Below are positions 19,658 to 52,686 of a stretch of 64,000 nt of DNA, one piece after another. The stretch is from an uncultured Acidimicrobiia bacterium. GTDB lineage: Bacteria; Actinomycetota; Acidimicrobiia; Spongiisociales; ZC4RG35. Both the position numbers and the translations under genes were made by a program. The stretch is taken from assembly GCA_963744905.1 (NCBI GenBank), contig CAVUUV010000003.1, forward strand, positions 513,503 through 577,502, given 5' to 3'. The notes beneath the pieces are model-generated. The model did not search any database and was not told the origin of the DNA. It saw only the letters and a list, made by a program, of their open reading frames with translations. Position 1 is the first letter of the stretch, and every line of letters starts with the position of its first letter.

Positions 19658-21541
19658 TCAGACGGGGCTGATGGTGCAGCTGCAGTCCCGATGGGCGGGC
19701 GGAACCTCGTCGCCGGCTTCCGCCGCCGCCCGACAGGTCGGGCACAGTCGCCCCGAAGGTACCCAGTCCCAGCCACGGCGGTTGCGTTCCAGAGCAGACC
19801 GCAGCGCACCGTGATAGGAGGCCAGGGCCATGGAACGGATCCTTCGCTCCGCTTCGTCGGTGCGCCACCCCCGAAAGATGCGGGAGGCAGCGGCAGAGCG
19901 CTCCCGTGACCCGGCGCCCGACGCCTGCAGTGAGGCCTGCAGCGCCTGAGCCAGGTCGGCCCCCATCTCTTCCACGTCGGGCACCTCCTCCCCGGGACCG
20001 GTTCCAACGTTGCTCAGGCCCATCTCGGTGGCGGCTTCCCGTCCCGCTTCGGCCGATTCGGCCACCAGTGCCTCGAGATCGGAGCGGAACCCCGACTCCA
20101 GCTCTCCGGCATCGGGAACCCACTCTCCCTCGGTGAGCCGGATCTGTTCCAGGGCCTGATTCTGGGCGTCGGTCAAGGCCCGCTTGACCGTCCGCAACGC
20201 CTGATTGGTCAAAGGCAACAGGAGACGCTCCCGGATCTCGAAGACGTCGACGTTGCCGTTGCCGTCGACCGGCTCGATTGCTGGTTCGGACTGAGGCTCC
20301 TCCTCGCCCTCCCCGTCGGGGAGTGGAGCGGCGCTGTCCGGCTGTGGCTCGCCTCTGGGCGGGCGACGCAACCGGCGAAACAGTTCGGCCACGTGGTCGG
20401 GTTCCTGGCCCGACTCCGGCTCTGGCCCGGCCCGTGTCTCGGGTTCTTCCCGGGCAGGCCCGGACCCTGTCCTGTCCTCGGGCGGTGCCACGGGTTCGGG
20501 TTCGGGAGCCGACAGGAGCTCTTGGGCGTCAGGCCGGGGCGCCGCCTTACCCTCGGGCGGTGCCACGGGTTCGGGTTCGGAGGCTCTCGCTGTGGCCTCG
20601 TCAGCGCGGAGACGTGCTACCTCCTCGGCCAGGGCGTCGGCGTCGGCCTCCTCCTCCATCACCTGAGGCTCTCCAGGCTCCGCCCGGTTGGGCCTGATCA
20701 CTCGAACGGTGTGGCCGTCCTCCCAATCTTCTGAGTGTGGAATTCCGAATTCGTCGGCCACAACGGCCCGGCGGGGCAGGTCGGGAGGCTCGGTCAGGCC
20801 CAGACCGGACCGGCGCTCTTCTAGCTCGCCTTCGAACGCCGACAGGGCGGTGCGAACCGACTCCAGCTCGTCCATCAGCTCCTGGCGCCGCTGCTCGAGT
20901 GCTCTGGTCCGTTCCTGGGCCGCGTCCGCCTGGCGATGCGCCGAAGCGATGATGTCGTCGTGCTCGGCTCTGGCATCGGTCACCCACTTCTCCGACTCCA
21001 TCTTGGCGTTCCTTACGGTGTCCTCGGCCTCGCGACGGGCGCTGGAGGTGAGGCGGTGCGCTTCCCGCTCGGCCTCTCCCAGCACGGCCAGCGATTCGCG
21101 TTCGGCGGTCCTGGCCATCTCCTCGGTCTGGGCCCGGACCTGGTCCAGCATCTGGGAGCTGGTCGTCCAGGCATCGCTCCTCATCGCCTCGGCATCCTGG
21201 CGGGCCGCCTTGATCACAGCTTCGGCCTCGGCCGTGGCCTCGGTGCGCCAACGGGAGGCGTCGGCGGTAGCCCGGTCACGAATCGACTCGGCGGCGGTAC
21301 GGGCCGCCTCCAGGACCGAGGCGACTTCCCGGCCCACGTTCTCGAACTCGGACTTGAGGTCCTTGTCGGCGAATTCGCCCAGACGCGAGGACAGCCGGTC
21401 GCGTTGTTGAACCAGTTCTTCGACGGCAGCGGCCACCCGCTCCAGGAATTCGGCTACCTCCTCCGAGTCGTAACCTCGGAAGGCGGTCCGAAAGCTGGCG
21501 CGCCGTATCTCTTCTGGCGTCGGCTGGGTGGTCATGGGCAT
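19658..21541 (-). CDS. DivIVA-domain protein with a long Ala/Glu/Arg-rich coiled coil, a 25-aa internal duplication and a C-terminal Cys-rich tail
   Basis: N-terminal DivIVA motif (TPEEIRRASFRTAFRGYDSEEVAEFLERVA). A 30-bp repeat at 20476-20505 and 20551-20580 encodes EPEPVAPPE twice. C-terminus reads ...CPTC...CSC. Confidence 0.65.
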   Translation of the reverse strand: MPMTTQPTPEEIRRASFRTAFRGYDSEEVAEFLERVAAAVEELVQQRDRLSSRLGEFADKDLKSEFENVGREVASVLEAARTAAESIRDRATADASRWRTEATAEAEAVIKAARQDAEAMRSDAWTTSSQMLDQVRAQTEEMARTAERESLAVLGEAEREAHRLTSSARREAEDTVRNAKMESEKWVTDARAEHDDIIASAHRQADAAQERTRALEQRRQELMDELESVRTALSAFEGELEERRSGLGLTEPPDLPRRAVVADEFGIPHSEDWEDGHTVRVIRPNRAEPGEPQVMEEEADADALAEEVARLRADEATARASEPEPVAPPEGKAAPRPDAQELLSAPEPEPVAPPEDRTGSGPAREEPETRAGPEPESGQEPDHVAELFRRLRRPPRGEPQPDSAAPLPDGEGEEEPQSEPAIEPVDGNGNVDVFEIRERLLLPLTNQALRTVKRALTDAQNQALEQIRLTEGEWVPDAGELESGFRSDLEALVAESAEAGREAATEMGLSNVGTGPGEEVPDVEEMGADLAQALQASLQASGAGSRERSAAASRIFRGWRTDEAERRIRSMALASYHGALRSALERNRRGWDWVPSGRLCPTCRAAAEAGDEVPPAHRDCSCTISPV

Positions 21542-21619
21542 TTTCCAAGATACAGGCCAGGACCCGACAAACCCGACGTTTGCCCCCACGAGGGACGAGG
21601 CGGGCGGACCAGCCCCGGC

Positions 21620-21727
21620 TTCTTTGGACGCTGAGGAACGCCCCTCCCCTTCTTTGGACCGTCGCCGTCGCTATGCGTTCCTGGCGGTCCAAAGAAGCCG
21701 TAAACCGTTCCCCGGGGTCCAAAGAAC
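21620..21727. repeat. Palindromic repeat element, copy A: TTCTTTGGAC-N20-TTCTTTGGACCG-loop23-CGGTCCAAAGAA-N18-GGTCCAAAGAA
   Basis: Four 10-mers as two direct plus two inverted copies. The loop contains TCGCTATGCGTTC, which is also the core of copy B at 51174-51280. Lies between the 3' end of the Lon-PDZ gene and the 5' end of the DivIVA-like gene. Confidence 0.6.
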
Positions 21728-21753: not shown

Positions 21754-22779
21754 CTAGGCCTCCGGCAGTGAGGCCAGGAAATCGAGGGCATCGTCGATGG
21801 TGGAGACCGGTTTCAGCTCCATCGAATGGCGGGGAGCGGTCATAGCGGCGTCATAGTTGGCCTGCGGCACCAACATGTACTCGGCCCCGGCGGCCTCCGC
21901 CGCCACCACCTTCTGGCGCACCCCGCCGATGGCGCCCACCTTCCCGTCGGGGGAGATGGTCCCGGTGCCTGCCACCACGTGGCCATGGGCCAGGTCCCCG
22001 TTGGAGAGGGTCTCGATGATGGCCAGCGTGTACATCATCCCCGCCGAGGGGCCCCCGACGATTCCCGGATTGACGTCGATCCAGAAGGGAAGCTGGCGGA
22101 TGAAGATCCCGATGAACGCCTGGCCCGGGGTATCGGGATTCTCGGCCAGTTCGATGTCGTAGGTGTGCTCCTCGCCACTCCGAAGCACGGTCAGCCGGAT
22201 CGTGTCCCCGGGCTTCTTGCCGGCCAGCGCCGGGGCCAGATCGTCCACACCGGTCACCTTCTTCCCTTCGATGGCGGTGATCTGATCGCCGATCCTCAGC
22301 ACCTTGCCGGCCGGCGTGGCAGCCGCGTACCCGGTGATGAACACCTTGTCGGCCTGGGCCTCCAGGTTCAACTTGGACAGGGCCACCGTGATTGCAGTGG
22401 CGGTCGACTGATCCATCATCTGCAGGTTGAGGCGCTGGTACTGCTCATCGGACACGCCAGGCTTTCTGACCCGGTTCCGGGCCAGGACATCGACGGTTGG
22501 ATCGATCCCGGCCACCACCGCCTCGAAGGCGTTGAGGGGTTGGCTCTCCACCGTCAGCATCAGCAGCTCGCCGTGGGGCTGTTGAACCGGATGGCCCTCG
22601 ACGATGACCGCTGCCGAGGCGTCGCCCACCGGCCCGGGAGACCATGCGACGAGCGGCAGAGGGATGTTCCAGGCCAGGACCACCAGGCCCAGTACGAAGA
22701 AGACGATGGCCGCGGCAGTGAGTGAACGCTGGGGCTTGGGTGGTGACTGGTCGCTCACCGGCCGGATCGTATCGCCCAC
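21754..22779 (-). CDS. PDZ domain-containing Lon-like (S16) protease, YlbL/SepM-like, membrane anchored
   Basis: N-terminal TM (LTAAAIVFFVLGLVVLAW), a PDZ region, and a C-terminal Lon protease domain with ...GPSAGMMYTLAIIETL.... Confidence 0.7.
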   Translation of the reverse strand: MGDTIRPVSDQSPPKPQRSLTAAAIVFFVLGLVVLAWNIPLPLVAWSPGPVGDASAAVIVEGHPVQQPHGELLMLTVESQPLNAFEAVVAGIDPTVDVLARNRVRKPGVSDEQYQRLNLQMMDQSTATAITVALSKLNLEAQADKVFITGYAAATPAGKVLRIGDQITAIEGKKVTGVDDLAPALAGKKPGDTIRLTVLRSGEEHTYDIELAENPDTPGQAFIGIFIRQLPFWIDVNPGIVGGPSAGMMYTLAIIETLSNGDLAHGHVVAGTGTISPDGKVGAIGGVRQKVVAAEAAGAEYMLVPQANYDAAMTAPRHSMELKPVSTIDDALDFLASLPEA

Positions 22780-35943: not shown

Positions 35944-36159
35944 TCAGGACTTGGGTTCGCCCGTCTCGGACTTGGCTTCGCCCGTTTCGGACTTGGCGTC
36001 ATCTGGTGAGTCTGAGCTGCCCTCGGAGAGGCCCTTGCGGAACTCCTTGGCCGAGGCGCCGATGGAACGGGCCAGCTCGGGCAGCTTCTTGGCACCAAAC
36101 AGCAGGGCGACGATCACCAGAATGATCAGCCACTCACTGCCTCTCAGGCCACTAAACAT
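35944..36159 (-). CDS. tatA: Twin-arginine translocase subunit TatA/E, copy 1, with an acidic repetitive tail
   Basis: MFSGLRGSEWLIILVIVALLFGAKKLPELARSIGASAKEFRKG.... The tail carries KSETGEAKSETGEPKS, encoded by a 24-bp tandem repeat. Confidence 0.8.
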   Translation of the reverse strand: MFSGLRGSEWLIILVIVALLFGAKKLPELARSIGASAKEFRKGLSEGSSDSPDDAKSETGEAKSETGEPKS

Positions 36160-36244: not shown

Positions 36245-36412
36245 TCAGGACTCGGTTTCGTCCGGCTCGCTGCCCTCGGAGAGGCCCTTGCGGAACTCCT
36301 TGGCCGAGGCGCCGACGGAACGGGCCAGCTCGGGCAGCTTCTTGGCACCAAACAGCAGGGCGACGATCACCAGAATGACCAGCCACTCACTGCCTCTCAA
36401 GCCATCCAGCAT
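36245..36412 (-). CDS. tatA: Twin-arginine translocase subunit TatA/E, copy 2 (55 aa; below the ORF-track length cut-off)
   Basis: MLDGLRGSEWLVILVIVALLFGAKKLPELARSVGASAKEFRKGLSEGSEPDETES. The N-terminal roughly 40 aa are near-identical to copy 1 (about 87% nt identity) and the tails diverge. Confidence 0.7.
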   Translation of the reverse strand: MLDGLRGSEWLVILVIVALLFGAKKLPELARSVGASAKEFRKGLSEGSEPDETES

Positions 36413-40110: not shown

Positions 40111-40949
40111 CCACCCGGTTAGCGTCGAGCGCCGTGAAGCCAGTCAGTCACGTCGGCAGGAGGATCGACCTCTCCTACCCATCCAACCGCTGGGCGGTGG
40201 GCCTTACCCTTGTCGCGGGCCTGGCGGGTCTCATCCATCCCGAGGGCCGCAACTCCTTCTGGGCCGCCTTCCAGAGCGGGGGAACGGTCATTCTCACCTG
40301 GGCACTGACTCGGGAGCTCGACCCGGACCGGCCCGCCACCTCGGTGGTGGCGGCCGTCGCCGCCGGCGTGGTGGCGGTGTGGACCGGCGACGCCAGCCTC
40401 ATCGCCCTGGGTGGGCTGGTGGCGGCGGCCCGGATCCTGACCAGATCGACCGGTTCGTGGCCCCTCCTCACCGACATCGTGGTGATCGGAGCCGGAGTGG
40501 GCATCTTCGCCCGCAGCCCGCTGACCTGGGCATCGGGATTGGCCGTGGCGGCGGCGGTGGCCCTCGACACGGCCATGATCCATCCCGCCCCGCGCTATCA
40601 CGTCTGGCTGGCGGGAGCGATAGGAGTGGCGGTCACCCTGTCCGCCGTCATCTCCGACGCCCTCCCCCGGGACTGGTCCCCACCCAGCATCGCCACCATC
40701 GTCATCGCCATCCTCGGAACTCTGGCCGGCCTCCTCACCCCGGTCCTCCCCCTCAACTCCTTCAGCGACTTCCGCAACACCCGCCTCGACCCCAGCCGCC
40801 TCCGGGTGGCTCGCCGCCTCGTCGTCGCCACCCTCGCCCTCGGCGTCGTGGCCGGTGGCGCCGCCACCGGCGCCACCTCCTGGCCCGCCTGGCTGACCCT
40901 CATCCTGGCAGCACTGTTCCGCGTTTTTATCAGCGAAACGGGCCCCTGA
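40107..40949 (+). CDS. Hypothetical polytopic membrane protein (GTG start overlapping the nitrobindin stop, GTGA)
   Basis: 280-aa Ala/Gly/Val-rich protein with 7-8 hydrophobic helices. Confidence 0.45.
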   Translation: MTTRLASSAVKPVSHVGRRIDLSYPSNRWAVGLTLVAGLAGLIHPEGRNSFWAAFQSGGTVILTWALTRELDPDRPATSVVAAVAAGVVAVWTGDASLIALGGLVAAARILTRSTGSWPLLTDIVVIGAGVGIFARSPLTWASGLAVAAAVALDTAMIHPAPRYHVWLAGAIGVAVTLSAVISDALPRDWSPPSIATIVIAILGTLAGLLTPVLPLNSFSDFRNTRLDPSRLRVARRLVVATLALGVVAGGAATGATSWPAWLTLILAALFRVFISETGP

Positions 40950-41096
40950 GGGGGCCGTTTCGTAGGGGAGAACGCGCTACGAAACCGCCCTTTAGTCCCC
41001 AAGACGGGCCTGATGCGGCCATTGGAACACGCAACCAGGGATTTTCTCCCCTACGGATCGGCCCCTCACAGGGGCCGATCTGCTGATAAAAACGCG
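40920..41096. repeat. Nested inverted-repeat element: outer IR CGCGTTTTTATCAGC / GCTGATAAAAACGCG enclosing two G/C hairpins
   Basis: Outer arms at 40920-40934 and 41082-41096. Hairpin 1 is GAAACGGGCCCCTGAGGGGGCCGTTTC (40935-40961). Hairpin 2 is GATCGGCCCCTCACAGGGGCCGATC (41056-41080). The left outer arm encodes the last codons of the upstream gene. The whole lies between convergent genes. Confidence 0.45.
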
Positions 41097-41098
41097 GA

Positions 41099-41968
41099 TC
41101 AGATCCGGGTTCCTACTCCGCGTCGCTCGGCTTCTTCGAGGGCGGCGGCGGCGGCGGTGATGTCCTGGCTGGCGATTCCGACGGACTTGAAGAAGGTGAA
41201 ATCGGAGATGATGTCGGGGACGCCGTCTTCGAGCAGGTCGGTCAGGGTGGCATCCGGGCCTCGCTCGGCGGTCAGGAGATCGCCCGCCTCGGCAGCGGCG
41301 GCGTCACGGTCGTCCACCACCACGAAGGAGTGGAGCGTGACCTCGACCGGCACCTCGATCATGCCGGGACGGAAGGCGCCGATGGCGTTGATGTGGGTGC
41401 CCGCCTGAATCGCATCCGGCGAGAACAGGGCCGCGGTAGAGGGAGTGGCACAGGAGACGACGTCGGCAACACCCACGGCCTCATCGGCGGCATCGACCGC
41501 CTCGCCGCCGACCCGTTCCGCCAGGTCTTCGGCTCGGTTGCGGGTCCGCGACCAGACCAGCACCCGTTGGATGGGGCGCACCGTCCGCACCGCCTCGATT
41601 TGATCGAAGGCCATCGCTCCCGCCCCCAGCATGACGAGGACCGAAGCATCTTCTCGCGCCAGTAGCCGTGTGGCCAGGCCGGCACCGGCACCGGTGCGGA
41701 TGGCAGTCAGGGTGGGCCCGTCCACCATCCCCATCGGCGAACCGGATTCGTCCATGACCAAAACTAGCCCGACTGGATTTCCGGGCACGGTCGAGACGAT
41801 CTTGATCCCCGATCTCTCCCCCACCCTGCCCGGCATGTAGAGAGAACCAGCCAGCTCCCGTCGCAATGGCACCTGGCGATCGCTGGAAAAGGCCGCCACC
41901 TGTGACTCAACGGCCAGGTCCATCGGTAGACACTCACGGGTCTGCTGGGCGTCCAGGACCAGCATCAC
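41099..41968 (-). CDS. Ornithine cyclodeaminase/mu-crystallin family protein
   Basis: NAD-binding Rossmann signature VLGAGAMA. Family-typical ...GTHINAIGA... and an N-terminal substrate-domain motif. Confidence 0.7.
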   Translation of the reverse strand: MMLVLDAQQTRECLPMDLAVESQVAAFSSDRQVPLRRELAGSLYMPGRVGERSGIKIVSTVPGNPVGLVLVMDESGSPMGMVDGPTLTAIRTGAGAGLATRLLAREDASVLVMLGAGAMAFDQIEAVRTVRPIQRVLVWSRTRNRAEDLAERVGGEAVDAADEAVGVADVVSCATPSTAALFSPDAIQAGTHINAIGAFRPGMIEVPVEVTLHSFVVVDDRDAAAAEAGDLLTAERGPDATLTDLLEDGVPDIISDFTFFKSVGIASQDITAAAAALEEAERRGVGTRI

Positions 41969-46960: not shown

Positions 46961-47497
46961 TCAGCCCGGAGCCTCGGCCTTATCCACGGATTCCAGCCAC
47001 TCGAGGTGTTCGGTCTTCAGTGCCCGAATCGCCTCCAGCATGTCGGGAGCCTGCTTGGAGGCTGAGGCGGGATCGAAACGCCGCGCCACCTTCCCATGGC
47101 GATCTACGACGAACGTGACCCTGTGCACTGCACCGTCTGGATCGGCCACCCCGAACCGGCGAGCCATATCGCCCCCGGCGTCCGCCAGCAGGGGTAACGA
47201 CAGGTCCATCTCGTCCGAGAGATCGCGCGCCTGTCGGGCCGTGATCCTGGCAACTCCCATTACCTGGGAGGTTTCCTGGCCGAAGTCTTTCAGAAGCCGG
47301 TCGTACCCGGCAAGCAGCGACCTGTCGGTCTCGGACTCCGGGTCGGGCAGGAAGAAGATGACCATGGGCATCTTGCCCAGGTATGCGTCTCGATCGAGAG
47401 TCTGCCCGGTGCTGGCGGGCAGACTGAAGGGCGGGATCATTTCTCCGGTTTCAACACTCATCTCACCGGGTTCCCTACCCGGTCTCAGAATCGGCAA
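46961..47497 (-). CDS. Redoxin-fold (thioredoxin-like, AhpC/TSA-related) protein lacking the usual peroxidatic cysteine
   Basis: ...IPPFSLPASTGQTLDRDAYLGKMPMVIFFLPD... with no Cys in the active-site position. Confidence 0.5.
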   Translation of the reverse strand: MPILRPGREPGEMSVETGEMIPPFSLPASTGQTLDRDAYLGKMPMVIFFLPDPESETDRSLLAGYDRLLKDFGQETSQVMGVARITARQARDLSDEMDLSLPLLADAGGDMARRFGVADPDGAVHRVTFVVDRHGKVARRFDPASASKQAPDMLEAIRALKTEHLEWLESVDKAEAPG

Positions 47498-47540
47498 ACC
47501 GGACGGGTCGGCGCCGGGTCCTACGATCGGGTGAAGGACG

Positions 47541-48464: not shown

Positions 48465-48740
48465 CTAGGAACGTGAGCCGCTGCGCAGAGCCTTGATCAG
48501 CTCCCGCTTGGACATCTTCGAGCGTCCTTCGATCCCGACGTCTTTGGCCTTGTCGTACAGCTCCTGCTTGGTCCACTCCTCGTACGAGCCCCCACGTTCC
48601 CGTCGTCGGGCTGCCTGCTTGGGGGGGGTATTGGCGATACGAGCCGCCTTCTCCTTGCTCATCCCCTCGCGACGAAGGGCTTCGTAGCGATCGGGATCCT
48701 TGACACTGGGGCCGGGCCCAGACTTCTTGGGCATTGACAA
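48465..48740 (-). CDS. Small basic protein with C-terminal Rho-N/SAP-like motif
   Basis: 91-aa Lys/Arg/Glu-rich protein. The C-terminal EGRSKMSKRELIKALR resembles the Rho termination factor N-terminal helix-turn-helix. Confidence 0.45.
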   Translation of the reverse strand: MSMPKKSGPGPSVKDPDRYEALRREGMSKEKAARIANTPPKQAARRRERGGSYEEWTKQELYDKAKDVGIEGRSKMSKRELIKALRSGSRS

Positions 48741-48892
48741 CCTCCTTCTTGAGTCGGCGGGATCTACCCGTCCTGTGTCAACTCAATCCAACCTTCGGAG
48801 TTGATCGGGCCTCGATGGGACTCGACTCCAGTAATCCTGTTTGACATTCTGGTGACAGGGGTAGAGCAGCGTCACGAGAAAAGGAGACTGTC

Positions 48893-49042
48893 ATCAACGC
48901 TGCCCTTATTATCCTGCTAATCGCTCTGCTCCTCGGCGGAGTCGGCTTGTTCGTCGAGGCTCTGCGCTGGGTCCTCATTATCGCACTGGTTCTGCTCGTT
49001 ATATCAGCCTTTACCGGTTATCGGAGCCGGCGCGTCGTCTGA
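48893..49042 (+). CDS. Possible about 50-aa two-TM peptide (UPF0391/DUF1328-like) with no canonical start codon
   Basis: VINAALIILLIALLLGGVGLFVEALRWVLIIALVLLVISAFTGYRSRRVV lies in an AT-richer island. An AAAGGAG Shine-Dalgarno sits 5-8 nt upstream of GTC/ATC codons, and no ATG/GTG/TTG is in frame. Confidence 0.3.
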   Translation: MNAALIILLIALLLGGVGLFVEALRWVLIIALVLLVISAFTGYRSRRVV

Positions 49043-49153
49043 CCCAACACAGCACAACCTGCCAAATACACCAACAAGCCCGGATCCGGCCGAAGATCTT
49101 CGACCGCTTTCCGGGCTTGTTGGCGCCCCACGAAGGACAACCGACGAACGCCT

Positions 49154-49621
49154 ATGTCTGAGAACGCCCACCACGACAGCTCCGAGGATCGACAACGCTA
49201 TGAGGAGCTGCTCTCCGAAATCCGGGTGATGTTGCCCGGGGTGGAGGTGCTGTTCGCCTTCCTCCTCACCTCGGTATTCTCGAGTCGCTTCGAGTTGGTG
49301 GATGACGTCGGACAGATCCTCTACCTGGTGGCATTGATCGCCGCAGCTCTGACCATTCTCCTTCTCACCGTTCCGGCATTTCTCCACAGGCTGTCGGCCG
49401 TCTCGAGGGAGACGAGAGTCAGCCTGGCTACCAACTTCCAGCTGATCGGCTCGATCTCGCTCGGGGTCAGCGTCTGTGCGGGTCTCTTCGTGGTCGTCAG
49501 ATTCGTCTTCAGCCAACCCTTCGCCATCTGGGTAACAGCATTCGTAGGCCTGGCCTGGGTCATTCTCTGGTACGTGATCCCTTTCGCGATGGGTCGTTCG
49601 CCAAACGGCACCAGGGCGTGA
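49154..49621 (+). CDS. DUF6328 family membrane protein
   Basis: ...RYEELLSEIRVMLPGVEVLFAFLLTSVFSSRF..., a family typical of actinobacteria, with three TM helices. Confidence 0.5.
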   Translation: MSENAHHDSSEDRQRYEELLSEIRVMLPGVEVLFAFLLTSVFSSRFELVDDVGQILYLVALIAAALTILLLTVPAFLHRLSAVSRETRVSLATNFQLIGSISLGVSVCAGLFVVVRFVFSQPFAIWVTAFVGLAWVILWYVIPFAMGRSPNGTRA

Positions 49622-49719
49622 CGGGGTTCTCTCTGCCGACGTTTGAAACGGGCGGGCAGCGGGTATCGGTGGGTCTATCACCAACCAATTCGGGTACCTG
49701 TGCCCAGGAAAGGAGCAAA

Positions 49720-49779
49720 ATGTACATCGGTATAGGCACGCTGATACTGATCATCCTCGTCGCTCTCCTTCTCTTCTGA
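49720..49779 (+). CDS. Candidate 19-aa hydrophobic micropeptide MYIGIGTLILIILVALLLF
   Basis: Strong Shine-Dalgarno GGAAAGGAG 6 nt upstream of the ATG. Entirely hydrophobic and located in an AT-richer island. Below ORF-track cut-offs. Confidence 0.3.
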   Translation: MYIGIGTLILIILVALLLF

Positions 49780-49831
49780 GCGGCGATCAGAGAATCGAGA
49801 AAGAGGATTATTGAAGGAATTTTGATTTGAT

Positions 49832-50461
49832 ATGACCAACAAGACCTACATCCATGGGGCCGAGGTAAGCACGGCTTCCGTCCGGGAGAGGTTCGGCGGG
49901 GTAGACACCCCGTCCGCCATCCTCGGCATGCTCACCGCATTGGGGGTCCTGGTGTTCCTCGGTGCATTGATAACGGCAGGGGCAGGAAACATGCCCTACC
50001 AGCTCAATGCCTACGACATCCAGGGCAACCTGCAGGCGCTGACCATCGGCGGAGTCGCCGTAGCGATCGTCGTGGTCTTCGTATCCTTCTTCGTCGGCGG
50101 TTGGTCCGCCGGCCGAATGGCCCGATACGACGGAGGAATCAACGGCATAGGCGTGGCGCTATGGGCCCTGCTCCTGGTGGCGATATTCGCTGCCCTCGGA
50201 GCCTGGGCGGGGAGCGAATACAACGCCTTCCAGCAGGTCGGCCTGCCCGACTGGTTCTCCCAGATCCGGGGAGACGACATCACCCTCATCGCAGTCATCT
50301 CGGCGGCGGTGGCGGTCGTCGTCATGTTCGTGGGCGCCTACCTAGGGGGGCGAATGGGCGAGCTGTATCACCGCAAGGCGGATGCCGCCCTGGCCGACCA
50401 GGTCATGGCGTCGGCCGTCACGAACCGGGGCCGGGCTCCTGTCAGCGAGGTGCAGTCATGA
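49832..50461 (+). CDS. Hypothetical membrane protein with an internally duplicated TM pair
   Basis: 209 aa. Two similar halves each contain GGWSAGRMA / GAYLGGRMG after paired TM helices. Confidence 0.5.
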   Translation: MTNKTYIHGAEVSTASVRERFGGVDTPSAILGMLTALGVLVFLGALITAGAGNMPYQLNAYDIQGNLQALTIGGVAVAIVVVFVSFFVGGWSAGRMARYDGGINGIGVALWALLLVAIFAALGAWAGSEYNAFQQVGLPDWFSQIRGDDITLIAVISAAVAVVVMFVGAYLGGRMGELYHRKADAALADQVMASAVTNRGRAPVSEVQS

Positions 50462-50823
50462 CACCCGCCGTGTTATCCAGCTCGACCCTGAAAGGTGACG
50501 ACATCGTCAACACCGCCGGGCACAAGCTCGGCACGCTCGAGGAGATCATGATCGACCTCACCAGCGGCGGGGTGGCGTACGCAGTCCTGGCCCGTGGCGG
50601 AATCGCGGGCATGGGACGCAAGCTCTTCGCCGTTCCCTGGCAGCTGATCAGCGTGGACGGCGACAACAAGCGCCTCGTCCTCGATGTCGAGGAGCGAGAG
50701 ATAGACGATGCCCCGGGATTCGATCCAGACAACTGGCCCACACTTGACGACGACTGGCATGGTGCCGTGCACCGCCACTACGGAGTCAGTCCGGGCTGGG
50801 ATCCGGCTCCGCCACTGACCTGA
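50458..50823 (+). CDS. PRC-barrel domain protein
   Basis: MTPAVLSSSTLKGDDIVNTAGHKLGTLEEIMIDLTSGGVAYAVLARGG...KLFAVPWQLI. ATGA overlap with the upstream membrane protein gene. Confidence 0.6.
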   Translation: MTPAVLSSSTLKGDDIVNTAGHKLGTLEEIMIDLTSGGVAYAVLARGGIAGMGRKLFAVPWQLISVDGDNKRLVLDVEEREIDDAPGFDPDNWPTLDDDWHGAVHRHYGVSPGWDPAPPLT

Positions 50824-50897: not shown

Positions 50898-51089
50898 TCA
50901 CACGTCGAGACGATCCTTGATCTTCTCGGCACTCTCGCCGGTTCGCTCCTTGATCCGTCCCACGAGCTCGTCGTAGTTGCCCTCGGCAACGTCGAGGTCG
51001 TCGTCGGTCAGGTTGCCCCAGGCCTGCTTGGCACGGCCTTTGAGCTGGTCCCAGCGACCTTCCCACTTGGTCTGTTTGGCGTCGGTCAT
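50898..51089 (-). CDS. CsbD-family general stress protein
   Basis: MTDAKQTKWEGRWDQLKGRAKQAWGNLTDDDLDVAEGNYDELVGRIKERTGESAEKIKDRL. Confidence 0.6.
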   Translation of the reverse strand: MTDAKQTKWEGRWDQLKGRAKQAWGNLTDDDLDVAEGNYDELVGRIKERTGESAEKIKDRLDV

Positions 51090-51173
51090 GACACTCCTTC
51101 TGTGTCGCGTTCGACCCTGAACTACCCCGCTAGGTCCCGGTTCAAACCGCTCACAACCCCGGCCGGGCGTCGT

Positions 51174-51280
51174 TTCTTTGGACACTCACGAACGCTTCCC
51201 AGCTTCTTTGGACCGTGACTATCGCTATGCGTTCGCCACGGTCCAAAGAAGGGGAGGGGCGTTCCCCACGGTCCAAAGAA
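51174..51280. repeat. Palindromic repeat element, copy B (same architecture as 21620-21727)
   Basis: TTCTTTGGAC at 51174 and 51204; GTCCAAAGAA at 51241 and 51271; loop contains TCGCTATGCGTTC. Lies between the 3' end of qcrB and the CsbD gene. Confidence 0.6.
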
Positions 51281-51333
51281 AGGGGTGCAAGTAGCCCTCC
51301 CCCGACGTCCGGCGCGGGGAACGCCCCTCGGGG

Positions 51334-52686
51334 TCAGGTCTGGCGGCGGAACCAGCGCAGCACTGCTCCGGCCGGCATCTCGGAGAGGCGTTCGGCATCG
51401 GAGCCGGCCAGGCTCTTGAGAAGGACGTAGGTGATCACCCCCACCACCACCGGCAGGATCACCACCAGCCACCGGAATGTGAGGGTGATGTCGTGAACGT
51501 CGGCCCGGAACCATCTGGCGATCAGGTCGTTGGAGCCCGCGAAGAAGAGCACCGCGTAGAAGACGAGGGTGGTGAGACCGAGCGAGGTCCGCACCGGCCG
51601 ATCCCGGGGCCGGTCCAACAAGTTGTGCATGGCGCGGTCGCCGGTCAGGCGCGCCTCCAGGAACGGCCACGCATACAACAGCAGGAAGGTGATCCCGGGA
51701 AGGAGGACACCGGGAAAGAAGGGGTTGGGTATCTCGTGCCCGAACATGGTGATGTCCCAAGAGGGAAAGATCCGCAGCGCCCCCTCCAGCCAGCCCAGGT
51801 ACCAGTCGGGCTGGGCGGGTGACGTGACCTGGGCCGGGTTGTAGGGCCCGTACAGCCACACCGGGTTGATCTGGACCAGACCGCCCAGGGTCATCACCAC
51901 GGCCGCCACCATGAAGAACAGGCCCACCGACTTGACGGCGTAGGAGGGCCACAACCGGGAGCCCACCACGTTGTCCTCGGTCCGGCCCTCCTCCGGAAAC
52001 TGGGTGTGCTTCTGGTGCCAGACCAGGGCCAGATGGATGGAGAGGAGGATGCCGATGGCGATCGGCACCAGCATGATGTGGATCGAGTAGAGGCGGGGAA
52101 TGATTCCCTCGGCCGGGTACTCACCCCCGAAAACGAGGTAGGCGACCCAGGGTCCCACAACCGGAATGGACAGGGCGATCGAGTAGAAGACTCGTAATCC
52201 TGTGCCCGACAGGATGTCATCAGGGAGCGAATAGCCGGTGAAGCCGTTGAAGATGGCGGCCAGCAACAGGGTCACGCCCACCAGCCAGTTGATATCGCGT
52301 GGACGGCGGAACGCCCCCGTGAAGAAGATCCGGGTCAGGTGGACGACGATGGCAGCCACGAAAACGAGCGCCGCCCAATGGTGGGCCTGGCGCATCACCA
52401 ATCCGGCCCGGGTCTTGAAGCTGATGTCCAGCACCGACCGATAGGCCTGTGAAACCTCCACCCCGTGCAGCGGGGCGTAAGAGCCCCGGTAGACGACTTC
52501 GGTCTGGCTGGGATCGAAGAAGAAGGTCAGGAACACACCGGTGAGGACCAGCACGATGAATGCATAGAGGGCCACCTCGCCCAGCATGAACGACCAGTGG
52601 TCGGGAAACACCTTGTCCAGGGTGCGACGGGCGAAGGATGAGGCGTCGAGGCGGTCGTCGATCCCCTCCATCCAACGCTCAATCAT
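51334..52686 (-). CDS. qcrB: Cytochrome bc1 complex cytochrome b subunit
   Basis: 450 aa with the cytochrome b helices and conserved His ligands (...RQAHHWAALVFV..., ...YSIHIMLVPIAIGILLSIHLALV...). Confidence 0.85.
   Translation of the reverse strand: MIERWMEGIDDRLDASSFARRTLDKVFPDHWSFMLGEVALYAFIVLVLTGVFLTFFFDPSQTEVVYRGSYAPLHGVEVSQAYRSVLDISFKTRAGLVMRQAHHWAALVFVAAIVVHLTRIFFTGAFRRPRDINWLVGVTLLLAAIFNGFTGYSLPDDILSGTGLRVFYSIALSIPVVGPWVAYLVFGGEYPAEGIIPRLYSIHIMLVPIAIGILLSIHLALVWHQKHTQFPEEGRTEDNVVGSRLWPSYAVKSVGLFFMVAAVVMTLGGLVQINPVWLYGPYNPAQVTSPAQPDWYLGWLEGALRIFPSWDITMFGHEIPNPFFPGVLLPGITFLLLYAWPFLEARLTGDRAMHNLLDRPRDRPVRTSLGLTTLVFYAVLFFAGSNDLIARWFRADVHDITLTFRWLVVILPVVVGVITYVLLKSLAGSDAERLSEMPAGAVLRWFRRQT

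Follow-up and report, generated by a model that had tools for sequence, protein, structure and literature searches.

A low-copy, putatively mobile nested-palindrome repeat in intergenic regions of uncultured Acidimicrobiia

The 107-nt nested imperfect palindrome that lies between qcrB and a csbD-like gene in an uncultured Acidimicrobiia MAG raises the question of whether such an element serves the genes on either side of it, or is instead a repeat that has come to rest beside them. The window (the whole 64-kb stretch of DNA analysed here) carries the element twice, as copy B (51174..51280) and, 29.5 kb away, as copy A (21620..21726), and an earlier note had described these as two related palindromic copies, with copy B proposed to separate a respiratory supercluster from a stress-protein cluster. 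The description is borne out by the analysis presented here, whilst the proposed boundary role is not, and the element looks like a small mobile “junk” repeat, real and undescribed, of an otherwise ordinary kind.

Architecture and setting of the two copies

A search of the window for TTCTTTGGAC, with up to one mismatch allowed, returned eight sites, all of them exact, where 1.5 are expected by chance and none of 100 shuffled sequences reached eight. These sites are confined to the two 107-nt elements, with half-sites at 21620 and 21650 (+) and 21687 and 21717 (-) in copy A, and at 51174 and 51204 (+) and 51241 and 51271 (-) in copy B, the layout in both being +,+,-,- at offsets 0/30/67/97. The unit runs H1-spacer-H2-loop-H2'-spacer-H1': 20 nt separate the outer site from an inner site that is lengthened to TTCTTTGGACCG, and beyond the 23-nt centre the same order is mirrored. 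Each unit holds four TTCTTTGGAC(CG) sites, two direct in the left arm and two inverted in the right, at a spacing of 30/37/30. In copy B, the exact motif search places the outer left half-site TTCTTTGGAC at 51174..51183 (+) and the motif search places the inner left half-site TTCTTTGGACCG at 51204..51215 (+), followed by the centre TGACTATCGCTATGCGTTCGCCA with its CGC-TAT-GCG tip (51216..51238, +), the inner right half-site (51239..51250, -; CGGTCCAAAGAA on the + strand), and the outer right half-site (51271..51280, -; GTCCAAAGAA on the + strand). The corresponding half-sites of copy A occupy 21620-21629, 21650-21661, 21685-21696, and 21717-21726. The ends of the element are TTCTTTGGAC and GTCCAAAGAA, and its arms of 42-53 nt are 75-76% complementary. 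At three of the four sites a second short motif, GGAACG/CGTTCC, is found 5 nt further in, and the repeating unit looks like a 21-nt bipartite site (TTCTTTGGAC-N5-GGAACG) with a 30-nt period.

Copies A and B each fold into a nested hairpin, with free energies from -68 to -69 kcal/mol whichever strand is folded and z-scores between -4.6 and -7.0; none of 200 shuffled sequences is as stable. Homology of the genes around them does not account for the architecture of the two copies, and six-frame readings of the element give only palindrome read-through, with no real ORF and no homologous real protein. No third copy, exact or degenerate, was found in the window with relaxed motif searches and a covariance model.

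The half-site coordinates and every string quoted in the earlier note proved correct, as did its view of A and B as related copies, which align without gaps at 77% identity over the 107-nt unit. The likeness of the loops is real, with the loop of copy B (TGACTATCGCTATGCGTTCGCCA) and that of copy A (TCGCCGTCGCTATGCGTTCCTGG) having TCGCTATGCGTTC in common, and the outer spacer of copy B (GGGGAGGGGCGTTCCCCACG) is indeed approximately the reverse complement of the first spacer of copy A (GCTGAGGAACGCCCCTCCCC). From this it had been suggested that the copies are related by partial inversion, or that the two arms of the hairpin evolve together. Comparison with the related copies L149 and L152 (described below) as outgroups shows that the loop, like the 5' half of each spacer, pairs the + strand of B with the + strand of A, and that the 3' halves of the spacers (a C-rich CCCCTCCCC type versus a ...CAGC type) pair the - strand of B with the + strand of A. 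This mosaic agrees with the suggestion in its general form, whilst no single clean inversion is present in the data, and the pattern could have come about within the palindrome through flipping of the central loop or through template switching from one arm to the other.

Copy B was correctly placed between qcrB and csbD, with both flanking genes confirmed. The stop codon of qcrB (cytochrome b; 51334..52686, -), the last gene of the cta-qcr respiratory block, lies 53 nt before the element, and the csbD-like gene (50898..51092, -) is preceded by a SigB/SigF-type promoter-like site, GGTTT-N16-GGGTA (51123..51148, -), 25 nt downstream of copy B on the gene strand. As this site is conserved in a relative without the element, it is judged to lie outside the element, as part of its context. 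Copy A lies 27 nt past the stop codon of a gene for a YlbL-like PDZ/Lon_C protease (21754..22779, -) and 84 nt before the start codon of a DivIVA-domain gene (19658..21535, -).

Absence from a sister species and dispersal to unrelated loci

In the nearest relative of the source organism, whose QcrB and YlbL are 91% and 87% identical to those encoded here, gene order from qcrB to divIVA is unchanged and neither copy is present. The qcrB-csbD spacer measures 138 nt in the sister and 241 nt here, and the ylbL-divIVA spacer 108 nt and 218 nt respectively, with the absence of the element from both sister spacers seen in two independent assemblies. In both spacers the promoter-proximal part is conserved, and it is therefore specifically a segment of ~105–110 nt that is present here and absent there. 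No copy was found in 42 kb of the sister species. Within the species itself, the conspecific MAG GCA_049579045.1 has both copies, with B identical and A differing by two substitutions, one of which alters an inner half-site (TTCCTTGGAC) and is left uncompensated. Since more distant relatives have different neighbours after qcrB, these data do not polarise gain in the present lineage against loss in the sister.

The retention of both the qcrB-csbD junction and the csbD promoter in the element-less sister argues against the proposal that copy B marks a boundary between respiratory and stress genes, as do the unrelated contexts of other copies, which lie between ylbL and divIVA, after tRNA genes, and beside a PadR gene. 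Furthermore, the intervening gene order is the same in the sister lacking both copies, and A and B were accordingly rejected as the ends of a 29-kb mobile or invertible segment.

The earlier note had accepted that a lack of additional copies anywhere, together with the lack of a transcript boundary or protein footprint, would refute its reading; motif and profile searches found such copies in other Acidimicrobiia contigs, and the reading is not refuted on that count. Scans for the exact core across 185,579 GTDB species representatives and JGI metagenomes returned one genuine relative (L003) from the species genomes and none from the JGI metagenomes, with three further matches (L002, L004, and L005) lying in unrelated sequence and judged from their flanks to be chance. 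L003 is one hairpin only, TTCTTTGGACCGTT...AACGGTCCAAAGAA, whose arms are the same 13-mers, and comes from another Acidimicrobiales MAG. Directly downstream of this lone hairpin, ~3 tandem repeats of ~66 nt were observed (L003:215-385), the last of which contains the start of the downstream gene, the 5' end of that gene thus being repeated. As several reading frames run through the palindrome, protein collections were also searched with a profile of its six-frame peptides, and four spurious small ‘proteins’ (P0241, P0243, P0245, and P0247) proved to be read-throughs of related elements. The copy at L149:4284-4390, ~250 nt past a tRNA-Gly/Cys/Val cluster, has all four sites at 30/37/30 spacing and the loop TAACCATCGCTATGCGTTCCCCA, and that at L152:977-1083 (also in L151) has four sites at the same spacing, between PadR and cupin genes on Acidimicrobiia contigs. 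L150:108-183 has three sites and a perfect central stem of 21 bp, and lies 13 nt after the stop codon of a convergent gene, and P0245 represents a further variant known from its protein read-through. L149 and L152 have only ~200 nt in common (88%) and their neighbourhoods are otherwise unrelated, which demonstrates dispersal of the element directly. All known copies are intergenic, in either orientation relative to the flanking genes.

Longer forms of the shared unit, namely a 150-nt inverted repeat or the ~200-nt L149/L152 unit, were considered and rejected, with the flanks of the window copies showing no significant similarity to the outer parts of L149 (p>0.18); the shared unit is therefore the 107-nt core. 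A covariance model (R1) built from five copies and run on 207 kb of Acidimicrobiia sequence recovers all known copies, including A at 126 bits and B at 115 bits, and no others. Copies number two in the 64 kb of the window and none in another 143 kb from related contigs.

Conservation among these copies is specific to the sites. Between A and B, 44/44 half-site positions are identical, compared with 38/63 other positions (Fisher p=1.5e-7), and the 13-mer TTCTTTGGACCGT is kept in L003 and L150 as well. The central hairpin does not vary in length (46-47 nt), and the sequence of its distal stem varies between copies with complementarity held within most of them (22/23 pairs in L150, 20/23 in L003, and 19/23 in A and B). 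L149 and L152 carry uncompensated half-site changes, as expected of a selfish repeat, and pair at only 12–14/23. Taken together, the alignments indicate constraint on both site sequence and palindromy, with some copies apparently decaying.

Several other features of the window and its counterpart in the sister were observed alongside the element. The motif GGTTT-N15-17-GGGTA, which resembles SigB/SigF promoters, occurs twice in the window (51123-51148 and 47476-47500, both -) against 0.06 expected; the second occurrence falls at the annotated start of an AhpC/TSA gene, the start of which is therefore probably further downstream. Between csbD and a DUF72 gene, positions 48465-50823 hold genes for a DUF7218/Rho_N protein, a DUF6328 protein, a 209-aa membrane protein, and a PRC-barrel protein, where the sister has only a ~430-nt gap, and this block looks like a lineage-specific insertion of stress-type genes beside copy B. 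A small palindrome, CAAACGTCGGGTTTG, found upstream of the DivIVA gene in both species (21577-21591 and L020:11100-11116), is a possible regulatory site. Another MITE-like element, of ~190 nt and not related to copies A and B (40914-41102 in the window; L015:19489-19665), with 59-nt arms that are 80% complementary and begin CCGCGTTTTTATCAGC...GGGGAGAA, lies between an OCD_Mu_crystall gene and a gene for a 280-aa protein, and occupies the same syntenic position in the sister. Additionally, a 253-nt tandem duplication (35944-36159 and 36245-36412, -; 93% identity over 159 nt) comprises two tandem genes for small membrane proteins, TatA-like by inspection only, which adjoin an ECF sigma-factor gene.

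A mobile repeat or a functional site

The reading that best accommodates these observations, and to which we assign a probability of roughly 55%, is that copies A and B belong to a low-copy, non-autonomous MITE/REP-like family of nested-palindrome repeats of uncultured Acidimicrobiia, and that they either arrived in, or were kept in, spacers at gene ends in this lineage. The conserved 10–12-mers would then be putative recognition sites of a trans-acting protein, possibly a transposase or a REP-type nuclease/recombinase, whose gene lies at another place in the genome, and the element would spread, or be copied, to intergenic spots by gene ends, with hairpin or template-switch processes maintaining the palindrome and scrambling its arms. 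The absence of a visible target-site duplication, the lack of a partner transposase in the window, and what looks like a very low copy number all count against this reading. No direct repeat flanks A or B, and comparison of both copies with the empty sites of the sister reveals no clean duplicated junction. Neither Pfam scanning nor synteny with the relative identified a transposase, integrase, or Y1/RAYT gene among the 57 ORFs of the window, and searches of the window, of plasmids and phages, and of viral contigs turned up no longer element that shares these ends. Two ideas regarding the choice of insertion site were also rejected: preferred insertion at a hairpin apex, with the reconstructed empty sites folding no better than shuffled sequence, and CGTTCTC as a target motif, the 8-mer being common in these genomes.

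That the element is instead a hairpin of use to its host, kept for its usefulness and not through mobility, is an unlikely alternative, in which a REP-like element at transcript ends would terminate or insulate qcrB from csbD, or protect the 3' end of the cta-qcr mRNA. The positions of copies 53 nt past the qcrB stop, 27 nt past that of ylbL, and 13 nt past that of the gene beside L150 are consistent with this, as are the extreme stability on both strands, the maintenance of distal-stem complementarity as the sequence changes between copies, and the presence of a promoter-like site for csbD itself just downstream. On the sense strand of qcrB, the terminator scan also flags a small GGGGA..UCCCC hairpin, with UUCUUUGG after it, as terminator-like; this 5-bp sub-hairpin is, however, the only feature flagged, with 0.5 expected from shuffles, and the main hairpin ends in AAAGAA with no 3' U-tract, its T-run lying within the 5' arm. 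A clear terminator is found by contrast after csbD, where a GC stem is followed by UAUAUGU. Furthermore, the same junction in the sister works without the element, the conserved spacer of copy A runs opposite to local transcription, L149 lies ~250 nt from the nearest gene end, and it is the half-site sequence that is conserved and not pairing alone, with changes left uncompensated. If transcribed at the 3' end of qcrB, the element must nevertheless be expected to fold into a very stable hairpin, which could stop read-through or exonucleases; a terminator or stabiliser role is thus plausible as a side effect, and any terminator or insulator effect would be incidental to the candidate mobile repeat.

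A related and rather less likely possibility is that the TTCTTTGGAC(CG) sites, with their 30/37/30 spacing across genera, form a module recognised by a conserved Acidimicrobiia protein, which could be a member of a new transposase/recombinase family with two-sites-per-end synapsis, or a host insulator or architectural protein. It is doubtful, to a greater degree, that the four sites are an operator or architectural array through which a conserved DNA-binding protein of the Acidimicrobiia, either a regulator or a nucleoid protein, would control csbD and divIVA. Eight perfect 10-mers set among diverged spacers, a 30-nt phasing fixed across genera, a 13-mer kept in different lineages, and the position of both window copies upstream of a gene start all speak for such an array. 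The element is, however, missing upstream of the csbD and divIVA orthologues of the sister, where the promoter-proximal sequences are conserved, and the genes downstream of the copies at other loci are unrelated. The L150 element abuts the stop codon of a convergent gene, the sites of L149 and L152 have decayed, and the 37 bp that separate the centres of the inner pair are an uncommon distance for a dimeric regulator. Any regulatory role of the element for its neighbouring genes would be hypothetical.

Some resemblances to sequence around site B bear on how the element may have arisen there. The string GAGGGGCGTTCCCC in the right spacer of copy B (51254..51267, +) is the exact 14-nt inverted partner of GGGGAACGCCCCTC (51316..51329, +), which lies in the 3' flank of qcrB, directly past the stop codon on the - strand, and complements the element spacer. 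Pairing of these two strings, should it form, would compete with the outer stem of copy B. The sister carries GAGGGACGTTCTCC where the window has GGGGAACGCCCCTC, and the flank motif is thus ancestral. A hairpin at the 3' end of the sister qcrB (L015:11363-11409; CGTTCTCC-N31-GGAGAACG) bears an H-like arm, TTCTCCGGAC, with 2 mismatches, and its right arm GTCCGGAGAACGA resembles the end of copy B plus flank (GTCCAAAGAAACGA); this last resemblance may be a relic, target-site similarity, or chance. The 14-nt complement and the H-like arm are hints of a partly local, in-situ history of site B, and to that extent speak against the favoured reading. It is nonetheless very improbable that the element as a whole grew in place out of a qcrB terminator hairpin that was already there, through expansion of the palindrome or template switching, with a single ectopic gene conversion to the ylbL-divIVA spacer and no need of a dedicated mobility system: such growth would suit the exact complementarity to an ancestral flank, the half-site-like arms CGTTCTCC..GTCCGGAGAACGA of the sister hairpin, the ranking of that hairpin among the top non-family matches of the covariance model, and the very low copy number, but the same core and geometry occur at unrelated loci of other organisms, CGTTCTCC is a common 8-mer (8 in the window, 5 in L015), the covariance-model match is not significant (11.6 bits, E=3.8), and the reconstructed empty sites, as above, fold no better than shuffles.

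Place among known repeats and meaning for the Acidimicrobiia

Searches of named collections returned no counterpart of the mobile repeat favoured here. Rfam gave no match to the element, with a tRNA as the sole gathering-level match in the window, and at E<=10 only miRNA-precursor look-alikes of ~20 bits against a 100-bit threshold. Plasmids and phages searched with blastn contained no match, and a literature search for the motif or for Acidimicrobiia repeats found nothing relevant. Matches from a scan of viral contigs were discarded as giant-virus tandem repeats and a conserved coding stretch with TTTGGACCG...CGGTCCAAA in low-GC contigs. As other candidate types, retron msd, attC, dif, parS, arrays of attP arm sites, and known actinobacterial operator consensuses were set aside, their defining partner genes or motifs being missing.

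Bacterial MITE-type palindromes include the Correia elements of Neisseria, the enterobacterial ERIC/IRU, and the pneumococcal RUP/BOX, and the comparison drawn with them here is not based on a database match. Similarly to these, the present element falls in the range of ~100–150 nt, is non-coding, and forms an imperfect palindrome over its full length, lies between genes near gene ends, is present or absent among close relatives, and would form a long hairpin in a transcript. At 107 nt, it is a non-coding sequence of <300 bp with terminal inverted repeats, present or absent at orthologous sites and with copies at unrelated loci, as is characteristic of MITEs. In contrast to the families named, it shares sequence with none of them, its copy number is apparently very low and not in the tens to hundreds, and each of its arms contains two direct 10–12-mers at 30-nt spacing. 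Correia elements duplicate a TA target, whilst A and B, against what is typical of MITEs, show no target-site duplication.

The likeness to REP/BIME repeats is of another kind. The sequence at the hairpin base is conserved with the distal stem and loop variable, single-hairpin forms occur alongside composite ones (L003, L150, and the four-site form), and the copies are extragenic, near stop codons, and without target duplication. The base TTCTTTGGACCGT has, however, no GTAG-type 5' tetranucleotide as in REP, the hairpins are nested and not side by side, no RAYT (Y1_Tnp) gene occurs among the window ORFs, and copy number is not high in any genome examined. The ends of IR-DR transposons (Tc1/Sleeping Beauty, IS21-type) likewise have two direct motifs per arm, inverted between arms, at fixed spacing, but this is an analogy of layout only, with the whole unit here measuring 107 nt with a 23-nt interior, no known transposase, and no duplication of TA or any other target. 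The element is best filed as a ‘small intergenic palindromic repeat’, a member of no named family.

For the annotation of MAGs, the analysis provides a repeat family that is defined by a 107-nt core and a covariance model, is known from at least six loci, and otherwise yields spurious small ORFs such as those noted above. The presence or absence of the element separates closely related Acidimicrobiia lineages, and the reading of the adjoining respiratory and stress genes is unaltered by it. The four perfectly kept, phased sites imply a putative binding protein, and should the 10–12-mers indeed bind such a protein, they would lead towards a mobility or DNA-binding system that is as yet uncharacterised, in a phylum-level group without genetic tools. 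If the sites are recognised by a conserved Acidimicrobiia protein, the repeat family would itself be a handle for the discovery of that protein.
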